Shown here one piece after another: positions 1,195 through 13,452 of a stretch of DNA of 64,000 nucleotides (the stretch's first letter is position 1; every line of letters starts with the position of its first letter). A model generated the notes under the pieces. That model did not search any database, was not told the DNA's origin, and saw only the letters and a program-made list of their open reading frames with translations. The DNA is taken from contig JACPHN010000228.1 of assembly GCA_016188575.1 (NCBI GenBank), positions 35,961 through 99,960 on the forward strand. The letters are read 5' to 3'. The stretch comes from Candidatus Schekmanbacteria bacterium (lineage in GTDB: Bacteria; CSSED10-310; JACPHN01). The translations under genes were made by a program, and so were the position numbers.

Positions 1195-1447
1195 GTTGGC
1201 TGTGGAGCTTGAGGCGCTCCCACTATACCGCATTGTGCGGCGATTCACCACCGCGCGGCGGACCGTAAAGAGACTCCCTCGAGCAGGCACGCGCGAAACC
1301 GGTGCCGGCGAATGCCGATAATTAGACTTGGAGGCTGGCCTACGCGACATGGAGGCTCCGAAGGCGGCACGCCGTCGCCTCCGAACGAATGGGTGGGCCG
1401 GCCAGATGGGCCTGATTGGGGGCGGGATGTCGAAAGGAGAAGCCGTC

Positions 1448-4400
1448 ATGACCGGTCGCGCTCGAGCTCGATTGGCAGTGTGTCTTGTAACCGTCGTCGC
1501 GCTGTTCCCGAGGCCGTCAGAGCTCGAAGCTGCGATCTCGTTCGTCGAGGCGATCGCGACACCGCTCACGTTTCCCGACGGCAATGGCGCGACGGGCGTC
1601 GCTACCGCCGATCTCAACGGCGACGGTCTCGCCGACTTGGCGGCGACGGTCAATCTCCGGGGACATGGCTTCGTGGCGGTTTTGCTTGGCGGCGGGGACG
1701 GCACGTTTCGCGGCCCGATGACGTTCGCGGTGCCGCGGCAGGAAAGCGGTGCCGCAGCCTTTGGTTACGGTATCCTGGCGCGAGACTTCGACGGCGATGG
1801 CAAGGCCGATATTCTGGTGGCCTGCTCGGAGCGGCGCGAGCTGCTCTTTTACCGCGGGGATGGCGATGGGACTCTGGCCGATCCGGTCGCGACAGCGGCC
1901 ACCTGCCGCCCGGAGCAAATCCAGGCGACGGACCTCGATGGCGACGGCAAGCTAGACGCTGTCGCCGCGTGCGCGCAAGACGACGGTGTATCGGTTTTCC
2001 TGGGCGCCGGCAGCGGCACGTTCCGGTCCCCTGCAGACTACGCCGTGGGTGACAACCCCCAAGATCTGGCACTCGCCAATGTCGACGGCGCAGGTGGGAT
2101 CGACATCGTTCTTGGAAGCTACGGCGCACAAGCAGTGGAGGTGCTCGTTGGCGACGGCAGCGGGGGCTTCGGGGCACCGATCCGCTCCGGCGCCCGCATG
2201 CAGGTCCTCGGGCTGTACGTCGCCGACTTCACCGGGAACGGCGATCTCGACGCTGTGGTGGCAGGCGAGGGGAGCCGGATGGCGTTACTGCCCGGAAGCG
2301 GGGACGGGACCTTCACGACGCCCGCTGACGGCGACCTGGTGCCGATCGAGTCCTCGCCGCGCCGGCGCTTCAGCGAGAATGCAGCGCCGGACCTCGATGG
2401 GAACGGTGTCCCCGACGTCGTTTTTGGCCACAGCGCCAACTTCCTGACGATCGGCCTGGGAGCGAGCGGCGGAGGCATGACGCGGTCGACCTGGATTCCG
2501 TCTCCTGGCTCGGGCCTTGCCGGCGCGGCATATCGCGACGGCACGTCCACGGAGTCGCTCGTCTTCTCGGATTTCAACGGCGATGGTGCCACCGATGTGG
2601 CGGTGGCGTCGCCGTCGACAAATAGCCGGCGCGGCGGCCTGGCGGTGGTGTTGGGGCTGCCAGCGGCCAAAGGGACGTTTCGGGCGCCGCGCAGCTTCGC
2701 GACGAGTCGCGCCTGGAGCACCAACAACCGCGGCGCCGCACTTGCCGACGCCGATAGCGACGGTCAGCTCGATCTGCTCGCCATCACCGACCCTCTCGAT
2801 TTCCTGCGAAGCAATGGTGACGGCACGCTGGCGGCCGCCACCGAGGCGATCCCCCGCATTTCTGGCGCCGGCGAGCTCTACAATTCGCTGCGGGTCACGG
2901 ACTTTGACGACGACGGCAAGCTCGATGCCGTCTGGCTCGGCGCCGGTGGCGTGCAGGGCGGGCCCGCGCCGCGCGACCTCGTCGCCTACGGCAACGCGGA
3001 CGGCACCTTCGGCAACGTCCAGGCCTACGTTCCATCCAGCCCCGACGACGCTGGTGCCAACGTTGTCGCCATTCCAATCGACGGCGCCGATGCTGCCCCG
3101 GACCTCGCGATCTGGACCCGGAATGGGATCGAGACCTGGCTTTACGGAACGGCAGGTGACCGATCGTTCGGGCTCAGTGGCAGCCCGCTTCCTCTGGGGC
3201 AATTCCCACCCTATCCAGCCTCCGGCTTCACCGCCGCCGACTTTGACGGTGACGGTCGGCCCGACATTGTCGCCCGTTCCTGGGGTGAACCGGACGGGCT
3301 CGTCTTTTGGAAGGGCAAGGGCGATGGCGGCTACGAGACCGGCCAGCTTGTCACGCCTGGCTCAGCCGTTCCGGAGCTTCAGGACCTCGTTGCCGTGGAC
3401 ATCGACGCGGACGGCGCGCTCGACCTCGCGGGGAGTGCGGGCGACGGCCTGTACGTGTTGCTCGGCGCGGGCGATGGCACCTTCGCCGCCCCCCAGACCC
3501 TTACGAGCGGTGTGGCGTCGTCCGGGTTGGTTGCGGCGGACTTCGACTTGGATGGCAAGGCGGATATCGCGGTTGCGCACGCTGCCACCACGGCATCCAA
3601 TGGCTTTTCAGTGCTGGCAGGCAACGGCGATGGCACGTTCGACCCGTGGCGTGGTTACGCGGTTGGCAGCAACAGCGCGCCGTGGGCGGGTGCCGGAGAC
3701 CTCGACGGAAACGAAAAACCCGACGTCGTGGTCGGGCACACGGGTACGAGCTACGATCACTTTACTGTCCTCCTCAACGACTCGGCCCCGCGTGCGGACC
3801 TAGCCGCCGCCGTCGCCGCCAGTCCCGATCCCGTCCAGCTCGGCCAGCGCGTGACCTATACGATCACGATCGGCAACGCCGGTCCCGACGCGGCGACGGC
3901 AGTGGTCCTGACGGACTCCTGGAGTCTCGACGCGCCCTACTGGGCAGCCACCCCGTCGCAGGGCTCATGCACGCCCCCCGCGCGCGGTGCCGGACGGGAA
4001 TGGGGAGGCGGGCCCCTCACCTGCGCTCTCGGCGACCTCGCCGCTGGCGCCCAGGCAAGTGTCATCGTCGAGCTGACCAGCGCGAGGATCCTGGGGACCA
4101 TCTGGAACACGGCTGCCGTGAAGAGCGCGGTGGGTGACCCGAACCTCGCGGACAACGGTGCCGCCGCCAGCGCCACGGCGCAGACCTACGGCGTTCGCAT
4201 TTTCGGCCCGACCATCACCATGGTCGGCGACAACCCCACCTACGTGCTCCGCTACTCGAATTTGTTGGGACAGACGATCGCGTCGGCCGTGCTCGTGTTT
4301 CGCTTGCCGCCGACGCTCGAATACGACACCAGCTCGAGTGGCGGCACCTACCACCGAGCCCGCCACGAGGTTTTCTGGAATCTCGGCGATCTGGCCGCCC

Positions 4401-7225
4401 TCGACAGCGGCGAGGTAGCCGTTCGCGGGAAGGTTCCCTGGGGAATCCCGCCACACACCAAGCAAAGTCTAGGGGCGGCACTGGGCTGGTCGGGCAGCCC
4501 CGCCGGCTCACCTCTCGATGTCGCCCCCTACCTGACGTATGAGGCCCGTACGGAGGTCGCCCGCGCCACGCTTACCAGCGCCGAGGTCGATGCTCTGCTC
4601 GCCGCCGATTCCCGCGCCCAGGCGCTCTTCGCTCACGCTCAGACCCAGGGCTACGAATACTACGATATCGCGACCAGGACGACGGCAAACGACGGCTCGG
4701 AGGTCACCCACCTCTGGCTATTCGACCCCGCCACCCGGATGCCGGCCGCGGTTACCGTGCGGACGGGCCCTGGCCTCACCGGCGCGTCGAGCATCCTCGA
4801 GACATTCGGGACCTCCACCTTCGCCCTGGCCGACACGGGCGGAGCCATGGCGCTCGACATGAACCGCAACAGCTTCCTCGGCCCAACAGGCACATGGGCG
4901 ATGGCGAACAGCCCAAGCTACGGGCAGTGCCTCGGCACCTGTATCGGCAAGCAAGTGCCAATCTGGGTAATCGGCCGCGTGTTCAAGGCCGTGGGCGCGG
5001 CGATGAATAGTTGGACCTGCGCCAAATGCGCTACCGGTGACAAGGGGTCGTGCGCCGGGTGCTTGACGCTCCTCTCCGAGAATGTTCCGTTCCTCGGGGA
5101 AGGAGTCGATATTTCCATGTGCGTGAACGACTGCCTCGAGTGCGTGACGGGAAACCCGGACAAGTGCCACCTCTGCGACAAAGATAAGCGTGGCTGTCGT
5201 CCGGCCAACCTGGTTGAGAAGTACATCATGGGCCAGGACGTGGTCATGTACGGCTACGACTGCATCAACGGCGTCTACGCCTATGGGGAAGAAGTCCAGT
5301 TCTGTCCGCTGTGCACGCACGGCCAGACGTGCAAGGCGGAGGAGTGCAGCGACGTGGCGAGCTGCTGCGACTGCCAGAAAGAGAACTGCGCGCGGCCGCG
5401 GGAGGCGCGGCCTTGTGGCCGTAACGCGGCGGCCCGAGCGCCGGCAGAGCAGTGCGATATCAACCAGGACGAGGTAGACGGCGAGGTCCAGACCGCCCAC
5501 GACCCGAACGCGAAGTCTGGGCCGTCCGGTGACGTGGTGCGCGGGCAGACGCTCAGTTATGTCATCGATTATGAGAACACCGGCTCGGGAACGGCGCAGG
5601 GCGTGTTCGTCAGCGACCAGCTCAGCGCCTATCTCGACGAGAGCTCGCTTGTCATCGAGGGCGGAGGCAGCTACGTGCCGGGGACGCGAAATATCTTCTG
5701 GAACGTCGGCGATCTCGCTCCCGGTGCTGCCGGGCAAGTGCGCTACTCGGTCCAGGTGCGCGACGATGCGGCCATCGGCGGCGTGATCGTCAATGTCGGA
5801 CGGGTGTTCTTCCCAAGCGTTCCCGAGGAGACGACCACGAACGCAGTGGTGTCGACAGTGCGGACGGTCGTGGCGGAACCGCAGCAGGTGCAGGTGGTCG
5901 AAAATACCGCTGTACCGATTACCCTCAGCGGCCGCGATCCGGCCGGCCGGGTGCTGACCTACGCGATCGTCAAGCAGCCAAGCAGCGGCAGCCTGACCGG
6001 CACACCTCCAGACGTGATCTACACGCCGGGAATCGACTACGATGGGCCGGATAGCTTCAGCTTCACTGCCGGCAACGGGCTGACGACAAGTGAGGCCGCG
6101 GCCGTCGCGATCGTTGTGACCCCGTCTTTCTCGGATCAGACGCCGCCGCACGTCGTGCGCGTCGAGCCTGCCGACGGGAGCCAGGGCGTCGCGATCACCG
6201 CCGACGCCCGCGCTGAGGTCGCACGCGTCTGCTTCGACGAGCCGCTTGACCCGCTGACCGTCACGGTCGCCAACGTCCGCCTGAGCTCCAGGGGCGAAAG
6301 CGTCGTCGTGGAGCTCGTTCACGATCAGGTGCAGAGCTGTATCGGATTGGTGCCGGCGGTGGCGCTCGCGAATGACACGACGTACGTTGCGGCTGCCGGA
6401 AAGGACCTGAAGGACACCTCCGGCAACGCCATTGAAAGCGACCGCACCTGGAGCTTCCAAACGGCTGGGCAGGGCAGCGCGAACCCGGAACCGGCGACCG
6501 TTGACTTTTGCCTGGCGGCAGTGGGGACTACTTCGGCGGCGCAGAGCGTAACCATTTCGAACGTCGGCGCCACCGACCTGGCGTTTTCGAGCGCGGCGCT
6601 GGACGGAACGGGGGCCGGGGACTTCGCAATCGTATCCGACGGCTGCAGCTCAGGGCGACTGGTGCCCGGCGGAAACTGCGCCGTCGACATTCAGTTTGCG
6701 CCGCTGTCAGCGGGCGCAAAGTCCGCGACGCTGGAGCTTCTGGCGCCGGATGCTACTGTCCACGCGGCGCTCACCGGCGTCGCAGGCCAGACCGCGTTGC
6801 GCCTTGTTGCCGACTCATACACGGTCAGCGAGGCCGGCGGGAACGTCACGCTGGAGGTCCAGCGCCTGGGAAGCACGAGCGCCGAGCTTTCGGCAAGCTA
6901 CGCAACCGCCGATGAGAGTGCCGTGGCGGGTCAGGACTACGTCGCTGCCGCTGGCACGGTGACGGTGCCGGCCGGTCAGTCGACCGGAACGATGACCGTG
7001 ACACTGCTCGACGACGCTGCCCGCGAGGCGGAAGAAGTCTTCCGTGTGGCTCTTTCCGGTGCCGAGGTTTGCGGCGGGACGGCGACCGCGGCGCGTGTCG
7101 TGATCACGGACGACCTGCCCTTGGTCCGGGTAGGAACCCTCGCCGGGTTGCTAGTCGGCCTCGGCGCCGCGGCACTCGTAGCCGCGGCCGCGCGCCGGCG
7201 GCGGTCCCAACACCGCACGCTCTGA
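1448..7225 (+). CDS. Giant secreted surface/adhesin-like protein (~1,926 aa): signal peptide, FG-GAP/VCBS repeats, two DUF11-like conserved-repeat domains, a Cys-rich insert, Ig-like region, Calx-beta domain and a C-terminal hydrophobic helix plus RRRR tail
   Basis: ATG at 1448 is preceded by an AAGGAG ribosome-binding site, and [20 protein letters not shown] is signal-peptide-like. The N-terminal half has many DxDGDG FG-GAP motifs ([32 protein letters not shown] and others). The Calx-beta-like segment is [20 protein letters not shown]...[31 protein letters not shown]. The last 35 aa are [34 protein letters not shown]. The upstream TTG at 1328 given by the ORF track is rejected as an over-extension. 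Confidence 0.8.
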
Positions 7226-7361: not shown

Positions 7362-7754
7362 TTACCCGGCCATGAGCGAGCTCAGAACGGCGCGATCGAA
7401 ATACACCTCGTTGCGCTGAATGCGGCCATCCCTGACCCGCACGAAATCCATGCCGTCAGCCTCGGCTGTAGTGCTTCCCCCTGGTTTCCGAAACGTCGCG
7501 TGCCACAACACGGCGCAGCCTTCTCCCCCCTCGAACAAGTGTGCCTCGCGCAACGACCAGTGCATTGTCCAGCCTGCGAAAAGCTTGGTCAGGTATTTTC
7601 GCAGGGCGTCCGCACCCCGCACCGCTCCACGCGTGTTCGGGTCGACATACTCCACGTCGCTCGTATAGATTGACAGCACGCGCTCCACTTCCTGGCTGTT
7701 CCAGGCCGCCATGAACTGCTCCGCCAACCGCAACATTTCGTCCCGTTCCATCAT
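7362..7754 (-). CDS. SnoaL-like / NTF2-fold (ketosteroid-isomerase-like) small protein, ~130 aa
   Basis: Size and pattern are typical of SnoaL_2/NTF2-like proteins (LAEQFMAAWNSQ...VEYVDP...GAD). ATG at 7754 has an AAGGAG ribosome-binding site 5 nt upstream. It lies 10 nt downstream of the TetR gene stop, so the two are probably co-transcribed. Confidence 0.65.
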   Translation of the reverse strand: MMERDEMLRLAEQFMAAWNSQEVERVLSIYTSDVEYVDPNTRGAVRGADALRKYLTKLFAGWTMHWSLREAHLFEGGEGCAVLWHATFRKPGGSTTAEADGMDFVRVRDGRIQRNEVYFDRAVLSSLMAG

Positions 7755-7764
7755 TGCTCTCCTT

Positions 7765-8376
7765 TCATGAACCAAAATGCCGCTGCCATATTCTGCGCAG
7801 TGCGAATGCGCACGTTTCGAGGAGCATCGCTTCCAGCTCCGGCTCCGGCGTCATGCCGGCCTCGACGTCTCGCCTCAGCGCCGCCGTAGGGAGATCGATC
7901 AGGGCGAGCTGAATGCCCCGTACCGCAGCGCCATGCGATGCCCCCGCGAGCCGCACCGCGAACCCGTTGATCGCCTGCGCTGCGGCTTCCGTGAGCGCCG
8001 CCGCGCGCTCTCGGTAGCTCGCCGGCCAGCCGTCCGCGGCAAAATCCTCGCGGCTGTGAAGCAGCAGCAGGCGAGCTTCCCTGGGATGACCCCGGACCCA
8101 TTGACACGTGAATCGGACCGCACCCAGACCCGCCGCCACCGGGTCCTCCGCCGAGAGCTCCTGGAGAAACTGGGCTTGAAACTCCTCCACGAGGCAGAGC
8201 CACACTGCCGCCAGGATCTCGTTGCGCGAAGCATAACGGTGGTAAATGGAACCTGTCGATGCCCCTGCGCTCGCGGCGAGGGCGGCGATGGTCAGATTTT
8301 GGGGCCCGACCTCGGACGAGATCCGGGTCGCGCTCTGCAGAAGCGCTGCCTTGTCAATAAGTGCGTTGCGTCCCAT
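7765..8376 (-). CDS. TetR/AcrR family transcriptional regulator, 203 aa
   Basis: An N-terminal HTH is present (LTIAALAASAGASTGSIYHRYASRNEILAAVW) and the length is typical of TetR. I placed the start at MGRNALIDKA (cat read at 8374-8376); the 453-aa ORF-track extension is rejected. Confidence 0.85.
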   Translation of the reverse strand: MGRNALIDKAALLQSATRISSEVGPQNLTIAALAASAGASTGSIYHRYASRNEILAAVWLCLVEEFQAQFLQELSAEDPVAAGLGAVRFTCQWVRGHPREARLLLLHSREDFAADGWPASYRERAAALTEAAAQAINGFAVRLAGASHGAAVRGIQLALIDLPTAALRRDVEAGMTPEPELEAMLLETCAFALRRIWQRHFGS

Positions 8377-8393
8377 GGCGTCAATTAATTTAG

Positions 8394-8407
8394 CCGTTCT
8401 AGAATGG
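8394..8407. promoter_or_regulatory. Near-perfect 14-bp palindrome CCGTTCTAGAATGG (plus adjacent AATTAATT) in the divergent TetR / fusion-gene intergenic region; candidate TetR operator
   Basis: I read this directly in the 148-bp divergent intergenic region 8377-8524. It is AT-rich relative to the flanking sequence. Confidence 0.35.
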
Positions 8408-8524
8408 TCCGTCAAGATCGCCAGGCGCGGCGATTGCGCCCGCCGCGCCGGGCGATCGGATTGCCGGCCGCGGTCCTGGCGCGCGCTGACTCCAGCGCGC
8501 GATTCCTGGCTTTGGAGGTGCTGA

Positions 8525-10405
8525 ATGGTCGCCCCTGACCACGAACAATGCTGGCTGCGCGCCGACCCCGCGATCGTGGCAGCGCAGCTTGTTCCGGGCC
8601 ACACCCGGATCGTGTTCGCCGGCGATATCGGCACCGGAAAGACCACGCTGCTTACCGGTGTTGCGGATGCCCTGGTTGCCGAGCGAGTTCCCGTTGAGGC
8701 GATCTGCGCCGACCCCGGGCAGCCCGCATTCGGAGTCCCCGGCTGCGTGTCCATCGCCAGGCGCTGCGGCCGCTGCTGGCACGTACTCGGCATGGTCGGT
8801 CTCGGGTCGCTCGACGCGCTCCGGTTTCGTCTGCCGCTGGTGGCGGCAGTGCGTCGCTTGCCCCGCGCGCCAGAGTGCGTGCTGCTCGTGGATACGCCGG
8901 GAGCGGTGCGGGGAATGGCAGCAGCGGAGCTGCTCGCGGCGCTGGTGGCAACGGTGGAGGCCACCGCGGCGGTGGTTGTGGAGCGAAAAGACGAAGCACA
9001 GTCGGTTCTCGACGACCTCGCGGTGGCCGGCGCCACGGTGGTGCGGGTGCGTGCCGCGGCCGCAGCGCGGGGGCGGAGCAGTCGCCAGCGGCGAGCAGAC
9101 CGGACGAGTCGGTGGGAGGAGCACATCGCCGGTGCGCAGGTGCATGAGCTGCCCGTGGCGGGTCTTGCCGTTGGGGGTGCACCGCCTCCGGTCTCCGCCG
9201 CGGCGGCTTGGAGCGGTCGCCAGGCCGTGCTGGTTGGAGAAAACCGCGAGACGTTGGCGATGGGAGAGCTTTTGGGGGTGGACTCAGGCGTCGTCCGCGT
9301 GCTGGCCCCTCGCTTTGAGGTAGCTGCAGCGCGGGCGTTGATCGTCCGCGACGCTATTCGGCGCGATGGTGTACTGACGACCGCCCGTCCCCATTGCGAA
9401 GGTGGTAGGTTAGCCGCGTCCGCGCCCGCGGCGGCGGCGCGGCTCGCGGACTGGGGTGCGGGCTCCCGCCGCTCGGCCGGCCGCGCCTTCGTGGCGGAGC
9501 TGCTCGGCGGACCGTTCGATGATCCGATTCTTCATCTTCGCTGTGCGCGAAAACGGCGCAGTATCCTCTTCGATATCGGCGCGACCGACCGCCTGCCGGC
9601 GCGTGTGGCGCACCAGATCACGGATGCCTTCGTGACCCACGCGCACATCGATCACATCGCCGGACTCTTGTGGCTGATCCGGTGCCGCATTGGCTATCCG
9701 TGCTGCTGTCGGCTCTTCGGGCCGCCGGGTTTCGCCTCACACGTCGCGAATCTGGTAGCCTCGGTGCGCTGGGATCGCATCGGTGACGCTGGCCCACGCT
9801 TCGAGATCACAGAGGTCGGCGAGGAGTTGCTGTCCTGCTGGGAGCTCGTGGTCGGCAAGCAAGAGCTCGCTCTCCGCACAGATGGGGTGCGCCACGAGGG
9901 CACGCTGCTGGAGGAGCCGGGTTTTCGCGTGCGCGCGATCACGCTCGACCACGGCATCCCCGTTCTCGCCTTTGCGGCCGAGGAGAAACCTGATTTGGCA
10001 AGGAGACCACCTGGCCGGACGACCACGGACGACGACCGCGCTGGCACCGGCCGTGTCGTCTACGCCACGGACCTGGCCGATTCGCCCAGCAACCGGAGTC
10101 GGCTGATCGCGTTTGCGCGAGCGGCCCGCACCTTGTACTGTGAGGCTGCTTTTCGCGTCGCCGATGCTGCTCTTGCCCACGCCACGGGGCATCTGACCAC
10201 GCGCGCTTGTGGCGAGATCGCCAGCGCTGCCAACGTCCGTTGCCTGGTGCCCTTTCACTTCTCACGGCGCTACGAGCGAATACCGGCAGAGATCTATGCT
10301 GAGGTCCTTTCGCAATTCCCCGACACCGCCGTGCCGCAGGGCCTGGAGAGCGCGCGCGGTGCTTGCTCGCCGGCGCGTTCAGGCGCTGCCCGGCCGCATG
10401 ATTGA
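8525..10405 (+). CDS. Two-domain fusion protein (626 aa): N-terminal Clp1/Grc3-like P-loop polynucleotide-kinase-like domain and C-terminal RNase Z / RNase BN-like metallo-beta-lactamase nuclease domain
   Basis: ATG at 8525 has a GGAGG site 5 nt upstream. The N-terminal domain has Walker A FAGDIGTGKTTLL, then ICADPGQPAF (DxGQ) and LLVDTPG; this order matches Clp1-family kinases. The C-terminal domain has LFDIGATDRL...FVTHAHIDHIAGL (HxHxDH), DHGIPVLAFAAEE, VVYATDLADS and VPFHFSRRY, which matches the RNase Z HFSxRY signature. Confidence 0.75.
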   Translation: MVAPDHEQCWLRADPAIVAAQLVPGHTRIVFAGDIGTGKTTLLTGVADALVAERVPVEAICADPGQPAFGVPGCVSIARRCGRCWHVLGMVGLGSLDALRFRLPLVAAVRRLPRAPECVLLVDTPGAVRGMAAAELLAALVATVEATAAVVVERKDEAQSVLDDLAVAGATVVRVRAAAAARGRSSRQRRADRTSRWEEHIAGAQVHELPVAGLAVGGAPPPVSAAAAWSGRQAVLVGENRETLAMGELLGVDSGVVRVLAPRFEVAAARALIVRDAIRRDGVLTTARPHCEGGRLAASAPAAAARLADWGAGSRRSAGRAFVAELLGGPFDDPILHLRCARKRRSILFDIGATDRLPARVAHQITDAFVTHAHIDHIAGLLWLIRCRIGYPCCCRLFGPPGFASHVANLVASVRWDRIGDAGPRFEITEVGEELLSCWELVVGKQELALRTDGVRHEGTLLEEPGFRVRAITLDHGIPVLAFAAEEKPDLARRPPGRTTTDDDRAGTGRVVYATDLADSPSNRSRLIAFARAARTLYCEAAFRVADAALAHATGHLTTRACGEIASAANVRCLVPFHFSRRYERIPAEIYAEVLSQFPDTAVPQGLESARGACSPARSGAARPHD

Positions 10406-10435: not shown

Positions 10436-12400
10436 ATGGTAGCTCTTGCGCGCACCAACATTCCCGCCGGCGCCGAGGCACCCGCGCCGACTTCCCCGTC
10501 GCCCGGCGCCCACTCCTTCGACTTGGTGCCGCTCATTCCGCGTACGGTGCTTTTCGGTAACCCCACACAATTCCAGGCCCGCCTCGCCCCGGACGCTAGC
10601 CGCTTTTCCTTCCTCGCACCTTCGCCCGCCGGGGTGCTCAACGTCTGGTTACAGACGCTCGGCGCAGCGGATGCGGTCATGATCACCAACGATACTCACC
10701 GGGGCATCCTTCAGCACCTCTGGACGTACGACAGCCAGCACATTGTCTACTTGCAGGATGAGCTAGGCGAGGAAAACGACCACCTCTTTGTCGTGCATCT
10801 GGCCACCGGGATGGTGCGCGACTTGACGCCTTTTCCGGGAGTGCGGGCACAAAACGTCATGCTCGATCGCAAGCATCCTGGCGACCTGCTCGTGGGTCTG
10901 AACTTGCGCGACCGGCGGGTCTTTGACATGTATCGAGTCGACGTGAAGGCCGGGACTGCCGTGCTGGATACTGAAAACCCGGGCGACGTGCTCGGATGGA
11001 TGACGGATCCTGCCTTCGAGATTCGCGCCGCGCTTGCCTCCGGCTCCACCGACGGCAGTACTACGCTGCGCGTGCGCGACAACCGCGACCAACCTTGGCG
11101 CGACCTGGTGACCTGGCCGTTTGGCGAGAATGGTAACGTAGAGGATTTTGCGGCCGATGGCAGGAGCCTGTTCGTCGAGACGACCACAGACTCGGACACG
11201 GCGCGGCTGGTCGAGATCGACGCTCAAACCGGCGAGGAGCTGCGAACGCTGGCGGAAAACCCGAAAGCGGACGTTGGACGCGTGCTGGTCAATCCTGATA
11301 CGCACGTGCTCGAGGCAGTGTCGTTCGACTTTGAGAAAGAAGACTGGACGGTACTCGATGATTCCGTGCGAGCTGATTTCGCGGCGCTGTCAAAGCTCGC
11401 TCCCGACAATCTGTCGATCGTCAGCCGCGACTTGGCGGACCGGATCTGGATTGTGGCGTTCGAGCGCGACCGAGGATCGCTTCGTTACGTTCTGTATGAC
11501 CGCGACGCGAGGTCGAGCAGCGAGCTCCTGGTGAGCCAGCCGGAGCTGGAGGAGTATGCCCTCGCGCCGGTCGAGCCCGTGATCATCAAATCGCGAGACG
11601 GCCTCGATCTGGTGAGCTACTTGACCTTGCCGCCAGGCGTAGAGCCGGTACGCTTGCCGTTCGTGCTTAATCCGCATGGAGGGCCACAGTCCCGAAACAC
11701 CTGGGGCTATCGTCCCAATGTGCAGTGGCTTGCCAATCGCGGGTATGCCGTGCTGCAGGTGAACTTCCGCGGCTCGACCGGATACGGCAAATCCTTCCTC
11801 AACGCGGGGAACGGCGAATGGGGCCAGAAGATGCAGAACGACCTGACGGATGCGGTGCTGTGGGCCGTGGAGCGCGGCATCGCCGACCCGGCGCGGGTGG
11901 CAATCTTGGGTGGCTCCTACGGAGGGTATGCGGTGCTCGCCGGTCTCGCCTTTACGCCCGAGCTGTATGCTTGCGGCGTCGATATGTTCGGCCCCTCGAA
12001 CCTCCGCACGCTGCTGGCTTCGGCTCCGCCATACTGGGAGCTGGCCAAGAAAGAGTCGATGCTCCGCATCGGCGACGTGGAGCACGATGAGGCGCTGAAC
12101 CGGCGTCTGTCCCCGCTGTTTCACGTGGATGCGATCCGCGCGCCGTTGCTCATCGGCCAGGGTGCCAACGACGTGCGCGTAAAGATACACGAATCGGACC
12201 AGATCGCGGCTGCTGTGCGCCAGAAAGGCGTTGCGGTCGAGTACGTGGTCTACACCGACGAGGGACACAGTTTCGTGCGGCCGGAGAACCGATTTGATTT
12301 CTTTGGTCGCGCCGAGCGGTTTCTGGCCCAGCATCTCGGCGGTCGCTGTGAACCGTGGAGCGAGGTCCCGGGGGCGAGCGTGGAGGTGCGGCGGCTCTGA
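10436..12400 (+). CDS. S9 family serine peptidase (prolyl oligopeptidase / acylaminoacyl-peptidase-like): beta-propeller plus alpha/beta-hydrolase domain
   Basis: It shows GGSYGGY around the catalytic Ser, a C-terminal DEGHSF catalytic His region, and a long N-terminal propeller-like region. It starts 31 nt after the fusion gene. Confidence 0.85.
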   Translation: MVALARTNIPAGAEAPAPTSPSPGAHSFDLVPLIPRTVLFGNPTQFQARLAPDASRFSFLAPSPAGVLNVWLQTLGAADAVMITNDTHRGILQHLWTYDSQHIVYLQDELGEENDHLFVVHLATGMVRDLTPFPGVRAQNVMLDRKHPGDLLVGLNLRDRRVFDMYRVDVKAGTAVLDTENPGDVLGWMTDPAFEIRAALASGSTDGSTTLRVRDNRDQPWRDLVTWPFGENGNVEDFAADGRSLFVETTTDSDTARLVEIDAQTGEELRTLAENPKADVGRVLVNPDTHVLEAVSFDFEKEDWTVLDDSVRADFAALSKLAPDNLSIVSRDLADRIWIVAFERDRGSLRYVLYDRDARSSSELLVSQPELEEYALAPVEPVIIKSRDGLDLVSYLTLPPGVEPVRLPFVLNPHGGPQSRNTWGYRPNVQWLANRGYAVLQVNFRGSTGYGKSFLNAGNGEWGQKMQNDLTDAVLWAVERGIADPARVAILGGSYGGYAVLAGLAFTPELYACGVDMFGPSNLRTLLASAPPYWELAKKESMLRIGDVEHDEALNRRLSPLFHVDAIRAPLLIGQGANDVRVKIHESDQIAAAVRQKGVAVEYVVYTDEGHSFVRPENRFDFFGRAERFLAQHLGGRCEPWSEVPGASVEVRRL

Positions 12401-12508: not shown

Positions 12509-12919
12509 ATGGTGAAGATCAAGAAACGCACGAGCCGTCCCGGCAAAATCAAGGGTGCGATCCGGGCACTGAAGGCCGCCCGCCTCGATCGGGACACCGT
12601 GCGGGTAGGGTTGCACATCCTCGGTGAGAGCTCAGCCACGCCCGGGACGCAGGATGGCGTCGCGCGCGGTCGATCGACAGTGGAGGCGATCGCAGCGGCG
12701 ACCGAGCTGACAGTGGAAAAGGTGGCGAAGAGCTTGCTCGCGCTCCAGAAGATCGGGCTCATCGCGATGCCCGGGAATTCAGGGGGGGCCGCCGCGCCGC
12801 CCGAAGCCGTGGCCTTCGATCTCCCCACGAGCTCTCCTGACGACCAGGATGGCGAAGGTCCCGAACCTCGCGCGGACACTGGCGCGACGCCGCCCTCCAA
12901 TGGAGCACAATCGGCATGA
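12509..12919 (+). CDS. Hypothetical small protein (136 aa), basic N-terminus, possible HTH-like segment
   Basis: Its stop overlaps the start of the next gene as ATGA (12916-12919). The segment STVEAIAAATELTVEKVAKSLLALQKIGL is helix-turn-helix-like. I found no recognisable family. Confidence 0.45.
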   Translation: MVKIKKRTSRPGKIKGAIRALKAARLDRDTVRVGLHILGESSATPGTQDGVARGRSTVEAIAAATELTVEKVAKSLLALQKIGLIAMPGNSGGAAAPPEAVAFDLPTSSPDDQDGEGPEPRADTGATPPSNGAQSA

Positions 12920-13452
12920 GCATACCGTTTCGTCTCGCTCGCCTGATGAAAATGTATGGAAACGCCGCTCTCGACAAGGTCCGCGAGCTCGACCTCGGAG
13001 ACTGGGAGCATGTGCTCGATGATTGGCGTGATCCGGGGCGCAAGGATTCGTCCACGGTTCCGGATCGGGAGGCGTTTGAGGATGCTCTTGACGAGCTCGA
13101 GGCGGAGCTCGCCGAGGCGCGATCGCGTCGCCAGACCTCCAAGGAACGGGAAGAGCCGCGGCGCGCCCGGCCCACAGCGGAGCCAGGAAGCGGCCCCGGC
13201 CACGAGTCGTCGGGGAGGGCAGGCGCTGCCGGCAGACCCAAGAATGACCTGCGCCGTCACTACGCCGAGCTCAATGTCTCACCGGACGCGGACATGAAAA
13301 CCGTCAAGGCCGCCTACAGGCGACTCATTCGCCAGCACCATCCCGACATCCACTCGGGCGATCCGATCAAGGAAAAGACGGCCACCGAGCGGTCTCAACG
13401 ACTCACAGAAGCCTACCGCACAATCGAAAAGTCCCGGCGCGAGGGAAGCTGA
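12916..13452 (+). CDS. J-domain (DnaJ-like) protein with a C-terminal J domain
   Basis: DLRRHYAELNVSPDADMKTVKAAYRRLIRQHHPDIHSGD contains the HPD motif and J-domain helices. The charged N-terminal region has no known domain. Confidence 0.75.
   Translation: MSIPFRLARLMKMYGNAALDKVRELDLGDWEHVLDDWRDPGRKDSSTVPDREAFEDALDELEAELAEARSRRQTSKEREEPRRARPTAEPGSGPGHESSGRAGAAGRPKNDLRRHYAELNVSPDADMKTVKAAYRRLIRQHHPDIHSGDPIKEKTATERSQRLTEAYRTIEKSRREGS

Follow-up and report, generated by a model that had tools for sequence, protein, structure and literature searches.

In eukaryotes and archaea, kinases of the Clp1 family play a central part in the splicing of tRNA, the processing of rRNA and the formation of mRNA 3' ends; to our knowledge, next to nothing has been established about their roles in bacteria. 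Two eukaryotic assemblies, the Grc3–Las1 'RNase PNK' and TSEN–CLP1, physically couple a Clp1-family kinase to an RNA endonuclease, so that the RNA ends are passed from one active site to the other (PMC5900568). Here we describe a bacterial gene at positions 8525 to 10405 of a 64,000-nucleotide stretch of DNA from Candidatus Schekmanbacteria bacterium (contig JACPHN010000228.1, positions 35,961 to 99,960, forward strand; the whole stretch is called the window). As judged from sequence and from a structural model, its single polypeptide joins a Clp1/Grc3-type kinase to a metallo-beta-lactamase (MBL) of the tRNase Z clade.

How does this protein compare with the described systems? The nucleases of Grc3–Las1 and TSEN–CLP1 (the HEPN protein Las1 and the TSEN endonuclease) are metal-independent and leave a 5'-OH for the kinase, whereas that of the window protein is an MBL, expected to leave a 5'-phosphate; moreover, its coupling is by gene fusion and not by complex formation. 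T4 Pnk and the bacterial Pnkp(–Hen1) enzymes, on the other hand, carry a 5'-OH kinase and a metal-dependent 3'-end phosphoesterase on one polypeptide, as we propose for the fusion. These functional analogues have unrelated folds in both halves: T4 Pnk combines an adenylate-kinase-like P-loop domain with a HAD phosphatase, while Pnkp has a calcineurin-type phosphoesterase and a ligase domain. The window protein has neither a ligase domain nor a conserved Hen1-like partner, methyltransferases being adjacent in three of the 18 fusion-gene neighbourhoods that we compared.

Architecture of the fusion protein

The gene and its modules lie on the forward strand as follows.

8525–10405, forward strand: the fusion gene, complete in the open reading frame list, ATG start, 626 residues, stop codon included
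8552–9124, forward strand: Clp1/Grc3-type P-loop polynucleotide kinase domain, residues ~10–200 (CLP1_P 60.3 bits; Foldseek matches CLP1, Clp1 and Grc3)
9137–9394, forward strand: beta-rich middle domain, residues ~205–290, equivalent to the Clp1 C-terminal domain (AlphaFold2 strands at 205–286, pLDDT 85–96)
9398–9481, forward strand: Ala-rich interdomain linker, residues 292–319, predicted disordered (pLDDT <50; sequence EGGRLAASAPAAAARLADWGAGSRRSAG)
9482–10354, forward strand: tRNase Z-clade MBL domain, residues ~320–610, related to the PRK02126 subfamily (NF002558, 210 bits, E 4e-62)

The sequence GGAGG stands 7 nt 5' of the ATG. The protein is that of the NCBI entry HYV63_30390, from a metagenome-assembled genome (MAG) of Candidatus Schekmanbacteria bacterium, annotated only as 'hypothetical protein', and a single contig carries it among the database matches. 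An AlphaFold2 model (21 sequences; mean pLDDT 81) contains three folded modules: a P-loop domain (residues ~10–200), a beta-rich domain (~205–290) and an MBL domain (~320–610). A preliminary description, made from the letters alone, had given the reading frame, a series of motifs and an Ala-rich linker between two halves, the first Clp1-like and the second RNase Z-like. The frame and every quoted motif are present in the order given, far beyond chance; the linker is real and predicted to be disordered; and both assignments are borne out, the first by CLP1_P and by Foldseek matches to CLP1, Clp1 and Grc3, the second by Lactamase_B_2 (34 bits), by NF002558 and by a Foldseek match to Bacillus subtilis RNase Z. 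Since HMM, sequence and fold searches agree, we identify the modules as a Clp1/Grc3-type kinase, a Clp1 C-terminal-like beta domain and a tRNase Z-clade MBL, a phosphodiesterase of the binuclear-metal type.

The Clp1/Grc3-like kinase module

Is the N-terminal half truly of the Clp1 family? The Pfam model CLP1_P (PF16575), whose gathering score is 26.6, matches it at 60.3 bits (E 2.9e-16), and the runner-up P-loop family, TsaE (E 0.0022), is worse by more than 13 orders of magnitude. When the N-terminal half of the model was compared with the PDB by Foldseek, the top matches included human CLP1 in the TSEN complex (8hmy_E; E 9e-13, 284 columns, rmsd 3.3), with yeast Clp1, Caenorhabditis elegans Clp1 and Grc3 chains as further matches. 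Because these alignments span 284–370 columns, more than the kinase alone, the kinase and the beta-rich domain together correspond to the PNK and C-terminal domains of Clp1. The Clp1-like region, put at about 170 residues in the preliminary description, is therefore correctly identified but extends over ~290. Within the middle domain the alignment gives G218, a PP pair, W229, Q233 and R275–D276 as invariant.

A profile of the whole N-terminal module, when run against the PDB, was swamped by unrelated P-loop proteins (midasin, ArsA, RecA), a fault that was mended by removing the P-loop. Grc3 then became the sole significant PDB match, and it matched on just those two motifs that the preliminary description had singled out. 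In the Walker B stretch the family's 'lsaDPgsPafGvPGav' faces 'LDLDPGQPEFSPPGVV' of Grc3, and in the clasp stretch 'llvDaPGvvrG' faces 'LVVNTPGWIQGT'. Membership of an unrelated P-loop family, such as a GTPase or ArgK, is thus not what these searches found. The motifs of the kinase are these.

8621–8644, forward strand: Walker A (P-loop) GDIGTGKT, residues 33–40; G33, G38 and K39 kept in 119 of 120 homologues
8708–8722, forward strand: Walker B ADPGQ, residues 62–66, aligned by HMM to LDLDPGQPEFSPPG of Grc3
8882–8914, forward strand: clasp-equivalent motif LLVDTPGAVRG, residues 120–130 (LLVDTPG, 120–126), aligned to LVVNTPGWIQGT of Grc3
9068–9115, forward strand: Lid-like helix with R189, R193 and W197, residues 182–197, placed from conservation and from a model helix at 186–201

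The P-loop fits the pattern GxxxxGK[S/T] (K252/S253 in Grc3). D63 aligns with the catalytic base D283 of Grc3 and Q66 with Q286 (ADPGQ against LDPGQ); the Asp is kept in 119 of 120 homologues, the Gln, although present in the window protein, in 2 of 120 only. D123 and G126 of the clasp motif are kept in all 120, and the surrounding xDxPG is conserved. R193 and W197 are likewise kept in all 120 and R189 in 118; they lie on helix 186–201 in the expected order, and this order, together with the conservation, suggests that the helix is the equivalent of the Clp1/Grc3 Lid. In Grc3, kinase activity requires the residues of the P-loop and those of Walker B, and mutation W364A, which removes the RNA-stacking Trp of the clasp, almost abolishes it (PMC5900568). 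The corresponding position is Ala127 in the window protein and V, I, L or C, mostly Val, in the other 119; it is never Trp.

With the Clp1/Grc3/Nol9 kinases (PF16575) the window protein shares the P-loop GxxxxGK[ST], the xDTPG motif at the clasp position, a Walker B Asp-x-x-Gln in near-identical context (ADPGQPAFGVPG in the window protein, DLDPGQPEFSPPG in Grc3) and the fold across kinase and C-terminal domain; its Arg-bearing helix may be the counterpart of their lid. It differs from them in lacking a eukaryote-type N-terminal domain, in the replacement of the clasp Trp by Ala (Val in the fusion family) and in the covalent fusion of the kinase module to a nuclease domain. Enzymes of the Clp1 family are 5'-OH RNA kinases, the bacterial Ts-Clp1 of Thermus scotoductus included (PMC6777427).

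The RNase Z-like metallo-beta-lactamase module

The C-terminal half scores 34 bits with Pfam Lactamase_B_2 (PF12706), against a cutoff of 27. Its best NCBIfam match is NF002558 (PRK02126), a 'ribonuclease Z' subfamily, and the RNase Z equivalog models come next. The 210 bits of the NF002558 match, in two stretches split at the deletion described below, compare with a curated cutoff of 315; arm-bearing fusions reach 274–286, and stand-alone MBL relatives, at 380–450, exceed the cutoff. With the RNase Z equivalog TIGR02651 the window protein scores 75.9 bits against a cutoff of 292.95, which no protein among the fusions or stand-alone relatives scored approaches. By these scores NF002558 is the closest family and the fusion clade is a sister or derived group. 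Foldseek comparison of this half with the PDB gave 1y44, 2fk6, 4gcw, 2cbn and 3zwf as best matches, among whose identities are B. subtilis RNase Z (1y44, E 2e-15), E. coli ZiPD and human ELAC1. Motif I, LFDIGA (residues 348–353), includes D350, and the remaining motifs are as follows.

9635–9655, forward strand: motif II, THAHIDH (HxHxDH metal ligands), residues 371–377; H372, H374, D376 and H377 kept in 120 of 120
9944–9955, forward strand: motif III, LDHG, residues 474–477; H476 kept in 120 of 120
10061–10072, forward strand: motif IV, YATD, residues 513–516; D516 kept in 120 of 120
10139–10201, forward strand: variant HEAT (CEAAF, E540) and HST (GHLTT, H556) motifs, the Glu–His proton-relay pair; both residues kept in 120 of 120
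10256–10273, forward strand: motif V, HFSRRY, residues 578–583; H578 kept in 120 of 120

The roles of HEAT and HST in tRNase Z have been described (PMC3161902). A further tRNase Z element, the PxKxRN motif (the CCA anti-determinant, 5' of motif I), is absent from the whole fusion family, the equivalent segment being LGGPFDDPILHLRC in the window protein and VNGVFGDPLLHLRL in the family. The preliminary description had spoken of a full RNase Z motif set. This is correct for the metal-ligand motifs, but the flexible arm (exosite) and PxKxRN are missing, and HEAT and HST are variant. Compared with the short-form tRNase Z enzymes (RNase Z/RNase BN/ElaC/ELAC1), then, motifs I–V, all metal ligands, the Glu–His pair of HEAT and HST and the fold are the same, as is, in relatives of the fusion family, the flexible arm with its GP motif. 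What differs is the loss of that arm in the window copy, the family-wide absence of PxKxRN, the forms of HEAT (CEAxF) and HST (HLT) in the fusion family, and the 320-residue Clp1 module at the N-terminus of the window protein.

Loss of the flexible arm

In RNase Z the flexible arm clamps the elbow of the tRNA (PMC12663964; PMC3161902). What has become of it here?

9992–10051, forward strand: remnant loop DLARRPPGRTTTDDDRAGTG at the site of the deleted ~40-residue flexible arm (tRNA exosite, GP motif), located by an alignment gap

All 20 relatives in one alignment have some 40 extra residues between motif III (LDHG) and motif IV (YATD), and the spacing between these motifs is 39 residues in the window protein against 79 in 85 of the homologues in which it could be measured. 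Position by position, the family profile matches this insert to the flexible arm of B. subtilis RNase Z, GP motif included ('LaalglapGpWlgelkr...lPdGr' against 'LKEMNIPPGPVYQKIKK...LEDGR'). An HMM of the arm matches 119 of 120 proteins, the window protein being the sole miss. In the models, the remnant loop has a disordered stretch of 15 residues (pLDDT <50 at 492–506), while a relative, P0107, has a folded arm at residues ~483–539 (pLDDT 83–93). The other 12 loci of the fusion family, one of them truncated by the end of its contig, all retain the arm, as do most of the stand-alone outgroup proteins, so that its absence from the window protein is a secondary loss.

The window protein is not the only one of its kind. 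Among 58 full-length representatives, eight or nine divergent fusions, one of them from a Bradymonadales MAG, are also armless at the same site; a divergent clade of these comprises P0219, P0222, P0229, P0239, P0241, P0250 and P0263 (alignment A6). In this clade Walker A is degenerate in five of the seven clean sequences (GPGLDRE, GLGRS, AQGRT and SWVAKV are examples) and all MBL ligands are intact, so that its kinase module looks like one decaying into a non-catalytic domain. The window protein's combination of no arm with an intact kinase was met with in no other protein compared. A neighbour-joining tree of the MBL domain, which is unbootstrapped, puts the window protein on a long branch beside the main arm-bearing clade and armless proteins at three places. 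These placements suggest that the fusion family has lost the arm on more than one occasion, and the repeated loss in turn suggests that the fused N-terminal module can substitute for it.

Extent of the fusion family

How common is the fusion? The preliminary description had taken it for a candidate novel enzyme, but the fusion is not rare. The best 120 database matches (E ≤ 1e-124) all carry PF16575 and PF12706 in ~640–710 residues and come from cultured Halomonas species, Litchfieldella, Thiogranum, Acidiferrobacterales and many metagenomes. A genome scan gave at least seven to eight fused loci among the matches listed, and among these it added Thiohalobacter, Thioalkalivibrio, Chromatiaceae, Halospina, Pseudomonadales, an Enterobacteriaceae MAG and a Desulfobulbaceae MAG. 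An HMM of the N-terminal module, run against 1.84 billion representatives at 50% identity, found 118 at E ≤ 1e-30, and the lengths in this exhaustive search peak at 600–700 residues with a tail of fragments. All three domain HMMs match the window protein and 11 complete fusion genes among the loci scanned. From these searches we put the family, which is chromosomal, at several hundred sequences or more, the majority of them from Gammaproteobacteria.

The window protein is 39–46% identical to any relative, the family mean being 54%. The Asp, Lys and Arg sites of the kinase and every MBL ligand are near-invariant (K39 in 119 of 120, the MBL ligands in 120 of 120), and the window protein retains them all. 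By this measure both active sites are under strong purifying selection in the fusion family.

Such a family might be expected to have a name. Those that we found are automatic: 'MBL fold metallo-hydrolase', 'Clp1/GlmU family protein' and, in IMG, 'ribonuclease BN / polynucleotide 5'-kinase involved in rRNA processing'. A full-text literature search, whose scope fell short of most subscription-journal papers, found no description of the fusion, and a survey of bacterial Clp1 proteins by Saito et al. (2019) never mentions a lactamase or RNase Z fusion (PMC6777427). The early statement that no characterised bacterial protein has this architecture therefore agrees with the literature searched. As for the possibility, also raised then, that the fusion would prove to be a well-annotated, common family, common it is (at least 120 fusions; 118 representatives), but well annotated it is not. 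What is new here is an armless variant, built from two known kinds of domain within a common, uncharacterised fusion family; it is not categorically new.

Two simpler forms of the system were sought and rejected. A split-gene version is not seen, since no Clp1-like gene lies within 8 kb of the stand-alone PRK02126-like MBL genes; and the apparent unfused N-terminal modules, matches of ~300 residues, end in out-of-frame junk or inside the linker and are fragments. A larger form was also met with: P0059 (L045:996–3632), a member of 878 residues with an additional C-terminal HAD-hydrolase domain (residues 678–847) after the MBL. It is known from one contig only, of 4.8 kb, and may be either a genuine enzyme of three domains or an artefact of read-through or fusion. 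As evidence of a Pnk-like 3'-phosphatase this generic HAD domain, on its one contig, was given no weight.

Gene neighbourhood

The genes around the fusion gene in the window are as follows.

7765–8376, reverse strand: divergent TetR-family regulator (TetR_N, E 1.7e-9); local context only
8377–8524, no strand assigned: divergent intergenic region of 148 bp with palindromes, candidate TetR operators and promoters; local context
10436–12400, forward strand: S9 prolyl-oligopeptidase-family peptidase (Peptidase_S9, E 3.7e-45), 30 nt downstream of the fusion gene

The intergenic region holds a palindrome with 17-nt arms (8416–8432 and 8441–8457, 94% complementary). A second, perfect palindrome with 9-nt arms, CGCGCGCTG-ACTC-CAGCGCGCG (8480–8501), was noticed on reading the letters themselves; TCCTGG direct repeats stand on either side of it, and it lies 24 nt 5' of the start codon of the fusion gene. 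These palindromes may control either or both of the divergent units. Downstream of the TetR gene, and sharing 11 nt with it, is a SnoaL-like (NTF2-fold) gene (7362–7775), and the two, spanning 7362–8376 on the reverse strand, are probably an operon of their own. No terminator-like site was found between the fusion gene and the S9 peptidase gene, which in the window are probably co-transcribed. The divergent TetR pair, the 148-bp palindromic region and the S9 peptidase thus stand as first described, save that the gap before the peptidase is 30 nt and not 31.

Does this context tell us about function? We compared 18 fusion neighbourhoods, namely the window and L001–L010, L012, L042, L044, L046–L048 and L050. 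The TetR neighbour is absent from the 17 others, the S9 peptidase is not conserved beside homologues, and the pairing of the two is found in the window only; it is specific to this genome and carries no functional signal for the family at large. All-against-all BLAST of the neighbours at 12 fused loci found no conserved operon partner, nothing occurring in more than three loci, and the groups common to as many as three are antisense-ORF artefacts. Pfam searches of the flanking genes of unannotated loci returned unrelated functions. In Halomonas the fusion gene sits among housekeeping genes, for example dapB/carAB.

Several individual loci deserve mention in their own right. SAM methyltransferases adjoin the fusion gene at L002:7014–7832 (reverse strand), L004:10206–11033 (forward strand) and L042, and at the last of these two class-I methyltransferases flank or overlap it (5128–5901, reverse; 7958–8533, forward). 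This adjacency may be chance or a weak Hen1-like or regulatory link. CheR lies beside the fusion in two loci; these orphan CheR-type genes occur in two unrelated arrangements, L046 also having CheB and an MCP nearby. KptA is found in one: at L047:5427–5963 an RNA 2'-phosphotransferase Tpt1/KptA (PF01885) lies 38 nt upstream of an armless fusion, on the same strand, preceded (2254–5406) by NAPRTase, PRPP synthase and an isochorismatase/nicotinamidase-like gene. This is a coherent set for NAD salvage and NAD-consuming RNA repair, at one locus only. On two contigs with the same fusion protein, P0214, the gene for an Ap4A phosphorylase/ATP adenylyltransferase (PF19327, PF09830; L050:5195–6004 and L051:5195–6004) has a 4-nt overlap with the start of the fusion gene, a sign that the two may be translationally coupled. 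An HD-domain protein is encoded upstream of the fusion gene at L046. Within 8 kb of the fusion gene at L004 (587–2920 and 12967–16008) are RNase R, a SpoU methyltransferase, a YbaK-like tRNA-editing protein, a ribosome hibernation factor, archease and RtcB. The scattered neighbours (KptA, Ap4A phosphorylase, HD, RNase R/SpoU/archease/RtcB) hint at RNA or nucleotide-end chemistry.

Farther out in the window, just upstream of the TetR/SnoaL pair, is the gene for a giant predicted surface protein of 1965 residues (1328–7225, forward strand), whose central region is rich in Cys and which has FG-GAP/VCBS repeats and DUF11, Big_5/Big_9 and Calx-beta domains. A small protein (12916–13452, forward strand) is encoded downstream of the S9 peptidase, with an acidic, Arg-rich N-terminal region and a C-terminal DnaJ (J) domain. 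Neither tRNA genes nor Rfam RNAs were found in the 64-kb window.

Proposed function and alternatives

What might the two modules do together? The N-terminal module would phosphorylate RNA 5'-OH ends at the expense of ATP, using Lys39 and Thr40 of the P-loop, Asp63 as catalytic base and Arg189 and Arg193 of the putative lid. The C-terminal module would hydrolyse a phosphodiester at or near the RNA 3' end. It would either trim that end or open and take off a 2',3'-cyclic phosphate, and the latter is how short-form tRNase Z (ELAC1, rice TMS5) acts on damaged tRNA; two reports describe removal of the 2',3'-cyclic phosphate from cleaved tRNA by the short form (10.1101/2021.08.05.455008; PMC11897441). 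Metal-independent RNases leave 5'-OH and 2',3'-cyclic-phosphate ends; jointly the modules would turn these into 5'-phosphate and 3'-OH, and the healed ends would be ready for ligation or for 5'-phosphate-dependent decay, in the manner of T4 Pnk and bacterial Pnkp. The substrate of the arm-bearing relatives is probably tRNA-shaped. In the armless window copy it would probably be captured by the tethered Clp1-like module. There is a parallel in tRNase ZL, whose C-terminal half is catalytic without an exosite of its own, the other half supplying it (PMC12663964).

The order of events originally proposed, in which cleavage is coupled to the healing of the same cut, does not survive. Nucleases of the RNase Z type leave a 3'-OH and a 5'-phosphate, so the kinase has no role on the nuclease's own cut. 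Overall we incline, by a modest degree, towards a bifunctional RNA-end enzyme with both activities, and of its possible roles we find the healing or trimming of RNA at its two ends the likeliest; the specific two-ended healing scheme, which draws on analogy, we hold to be only about half as probable as this.

Several observations weigh against a bifunctional enzyme of this kind. The clasp Trp, nearly indispensable for the Grc3 kinase, is replaced throughout the fusion family. The MBL domain of the window protein falls under the curated cutoff of every RNase Z model, and its cyclic-phosphodiesterase role is proposed by analogy only. Deletion of the exosite lowers the activity of E. coli RNase Z on another substrate, so that the armless domain may be no more than an enfeebled enzyme. 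How the halves are oriented relative to each other is not confidently predicted (pTM 0.51). Across the 18 neighbourhoods no partner gene is conserved, in particular no RNA ligase, and the RNA-related neighbours were each met with at one genomic site.

The first of these points leads to a different view, that the Clp1-like module is not a kinase at all but an ATP-binding or purely structural module that serves the nuclease in substrate recognition or regulation, leaving a single catalytic activity. Yeast Clp1, which is not known to have kinase activity, would be the model. Its ATP-binding site is reported to modulate the interaction with Pcf11 (PMC3273803). The clasp Trp is never present in the family, the Walker B Gln occurs in only 2 of 120, and the armless divergent clade, with Walker A degenerate in five of seven and the MBL ligands kept, indicates that the module can persist without catalysis. 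Against this, the P-loop Lys and catalytic Asp (119 of 120 each) and the Arg residues of the lid-like helix (R189 in 118, R193 in 120) are conserved, the window protein included, which is hard to explain for a scaffold; and the bacterial Clp1 homologue is an active kinase. We regard a non-catalytic module as unlikely. Might the protein instead be the cell's own pre-tRNA 3'-processing RNase Z, or a second one, its kinase domain being an accessory? In sequence and in fold the C-terminal half finds its best matches among true tRNase Z enzymes, and a GP-motif arm, which can be aligned with the tRNA exosite of B. subtilis, is present in 119 of 120 relatives. That exosite is, however, deleted in the window protein, which makes pre-tRNA 3' processing, one of the roles suggested in the preliminary description, unlikely for this copy; PxKxRN is absent family-wide, the scores are low (TIGR02651 76 bits against 293; NF002558 210 against 315), the window holds no tRNA gene or Rfam RNA, and canonical removal of a 3' trailer needs no kinase. 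As an account of the fusion it is quite improbable.

The phosphodiester on which the MBL acts might also be something other than RNA, such as protein-AMP, a dinucleoside polyphosphate or a cyclic nucleotide, and the substrate of the P-loop domain a nucleotide or small molecule. RNase Z is a deAMPylase as well, although deletion of the exosite lowered, and did not enhance, this activity of the E. coli enzyme (PMC12663964). Loss of the exosite removes the tRNA-specific element, there is weak similarity to a cyclic-nucleotide phosphodiesterase model and to arylsulfatase, and Ap4A phosphorylase and HD-domain neighbours occur, each at one genomic site; but the N-terminal 290 residues match polynucleotide kinases specifically, in motifs and in fold, and the Glu–His pair typical of tRNase Z is retained. 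There is accordingly little to recommend a non-RNA substrate, and less still a toxin or anti-phage defence nuclease, a role to which the early mention of toxin-like activities had pointed and which is already close to refuted. Fusions of kinases or NTPases to nucleases are common in defence systems, but the fusion family has no match in 72,556 plasmids and 50,697 phages, PADLOC defence models return P-loop noise only, no immunity-like or antitoxin-like partner gene accompanies the gene, and it sits among housekeeping genes.

Within the bifunctional reading that we prefer, a bolder version is possible but distinctly doubtful. The fusions may be the core of an undescribed bacterial pathway of RNA (probably tRNA) end repair or quality control, in which the Clp1 module has repeatedly replaced the exosite in substrate capture. 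One protein would both add phosphate to 5'-OH ends and rid 3' ends of damage or of a cyclic phosphate; the window protein (armless, kinase intact) and the second clade (armless, P-loop degenerate) would be snapshots of the transition, in parallel to the way in which the halves of eukaryotic tRNase ZL divide the work between them.

Significance

RNA ends bearing a 5'-OH or a cyclic phosphate arise from toxins, stress RNases and ribosome rescue. The conserved fusion of a kinase to a tRNase Z-type domain would offer an entry point into the bacterial handling of such ends, in a field where assays in vitro have covered a single bacterial Clp1 enzyme (PMC6777427). Its presence in cultured Halomonas species makes it accessible to genetics, and the natural armless variants, with the kinase intact or degenerate, provide a test of how substrate recognition by RNase Z may be re-engineered. 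If both halves are active, the fusion could be a useful one-step reagent for RNA end repair. The fusion is worth biochemical follow-up.

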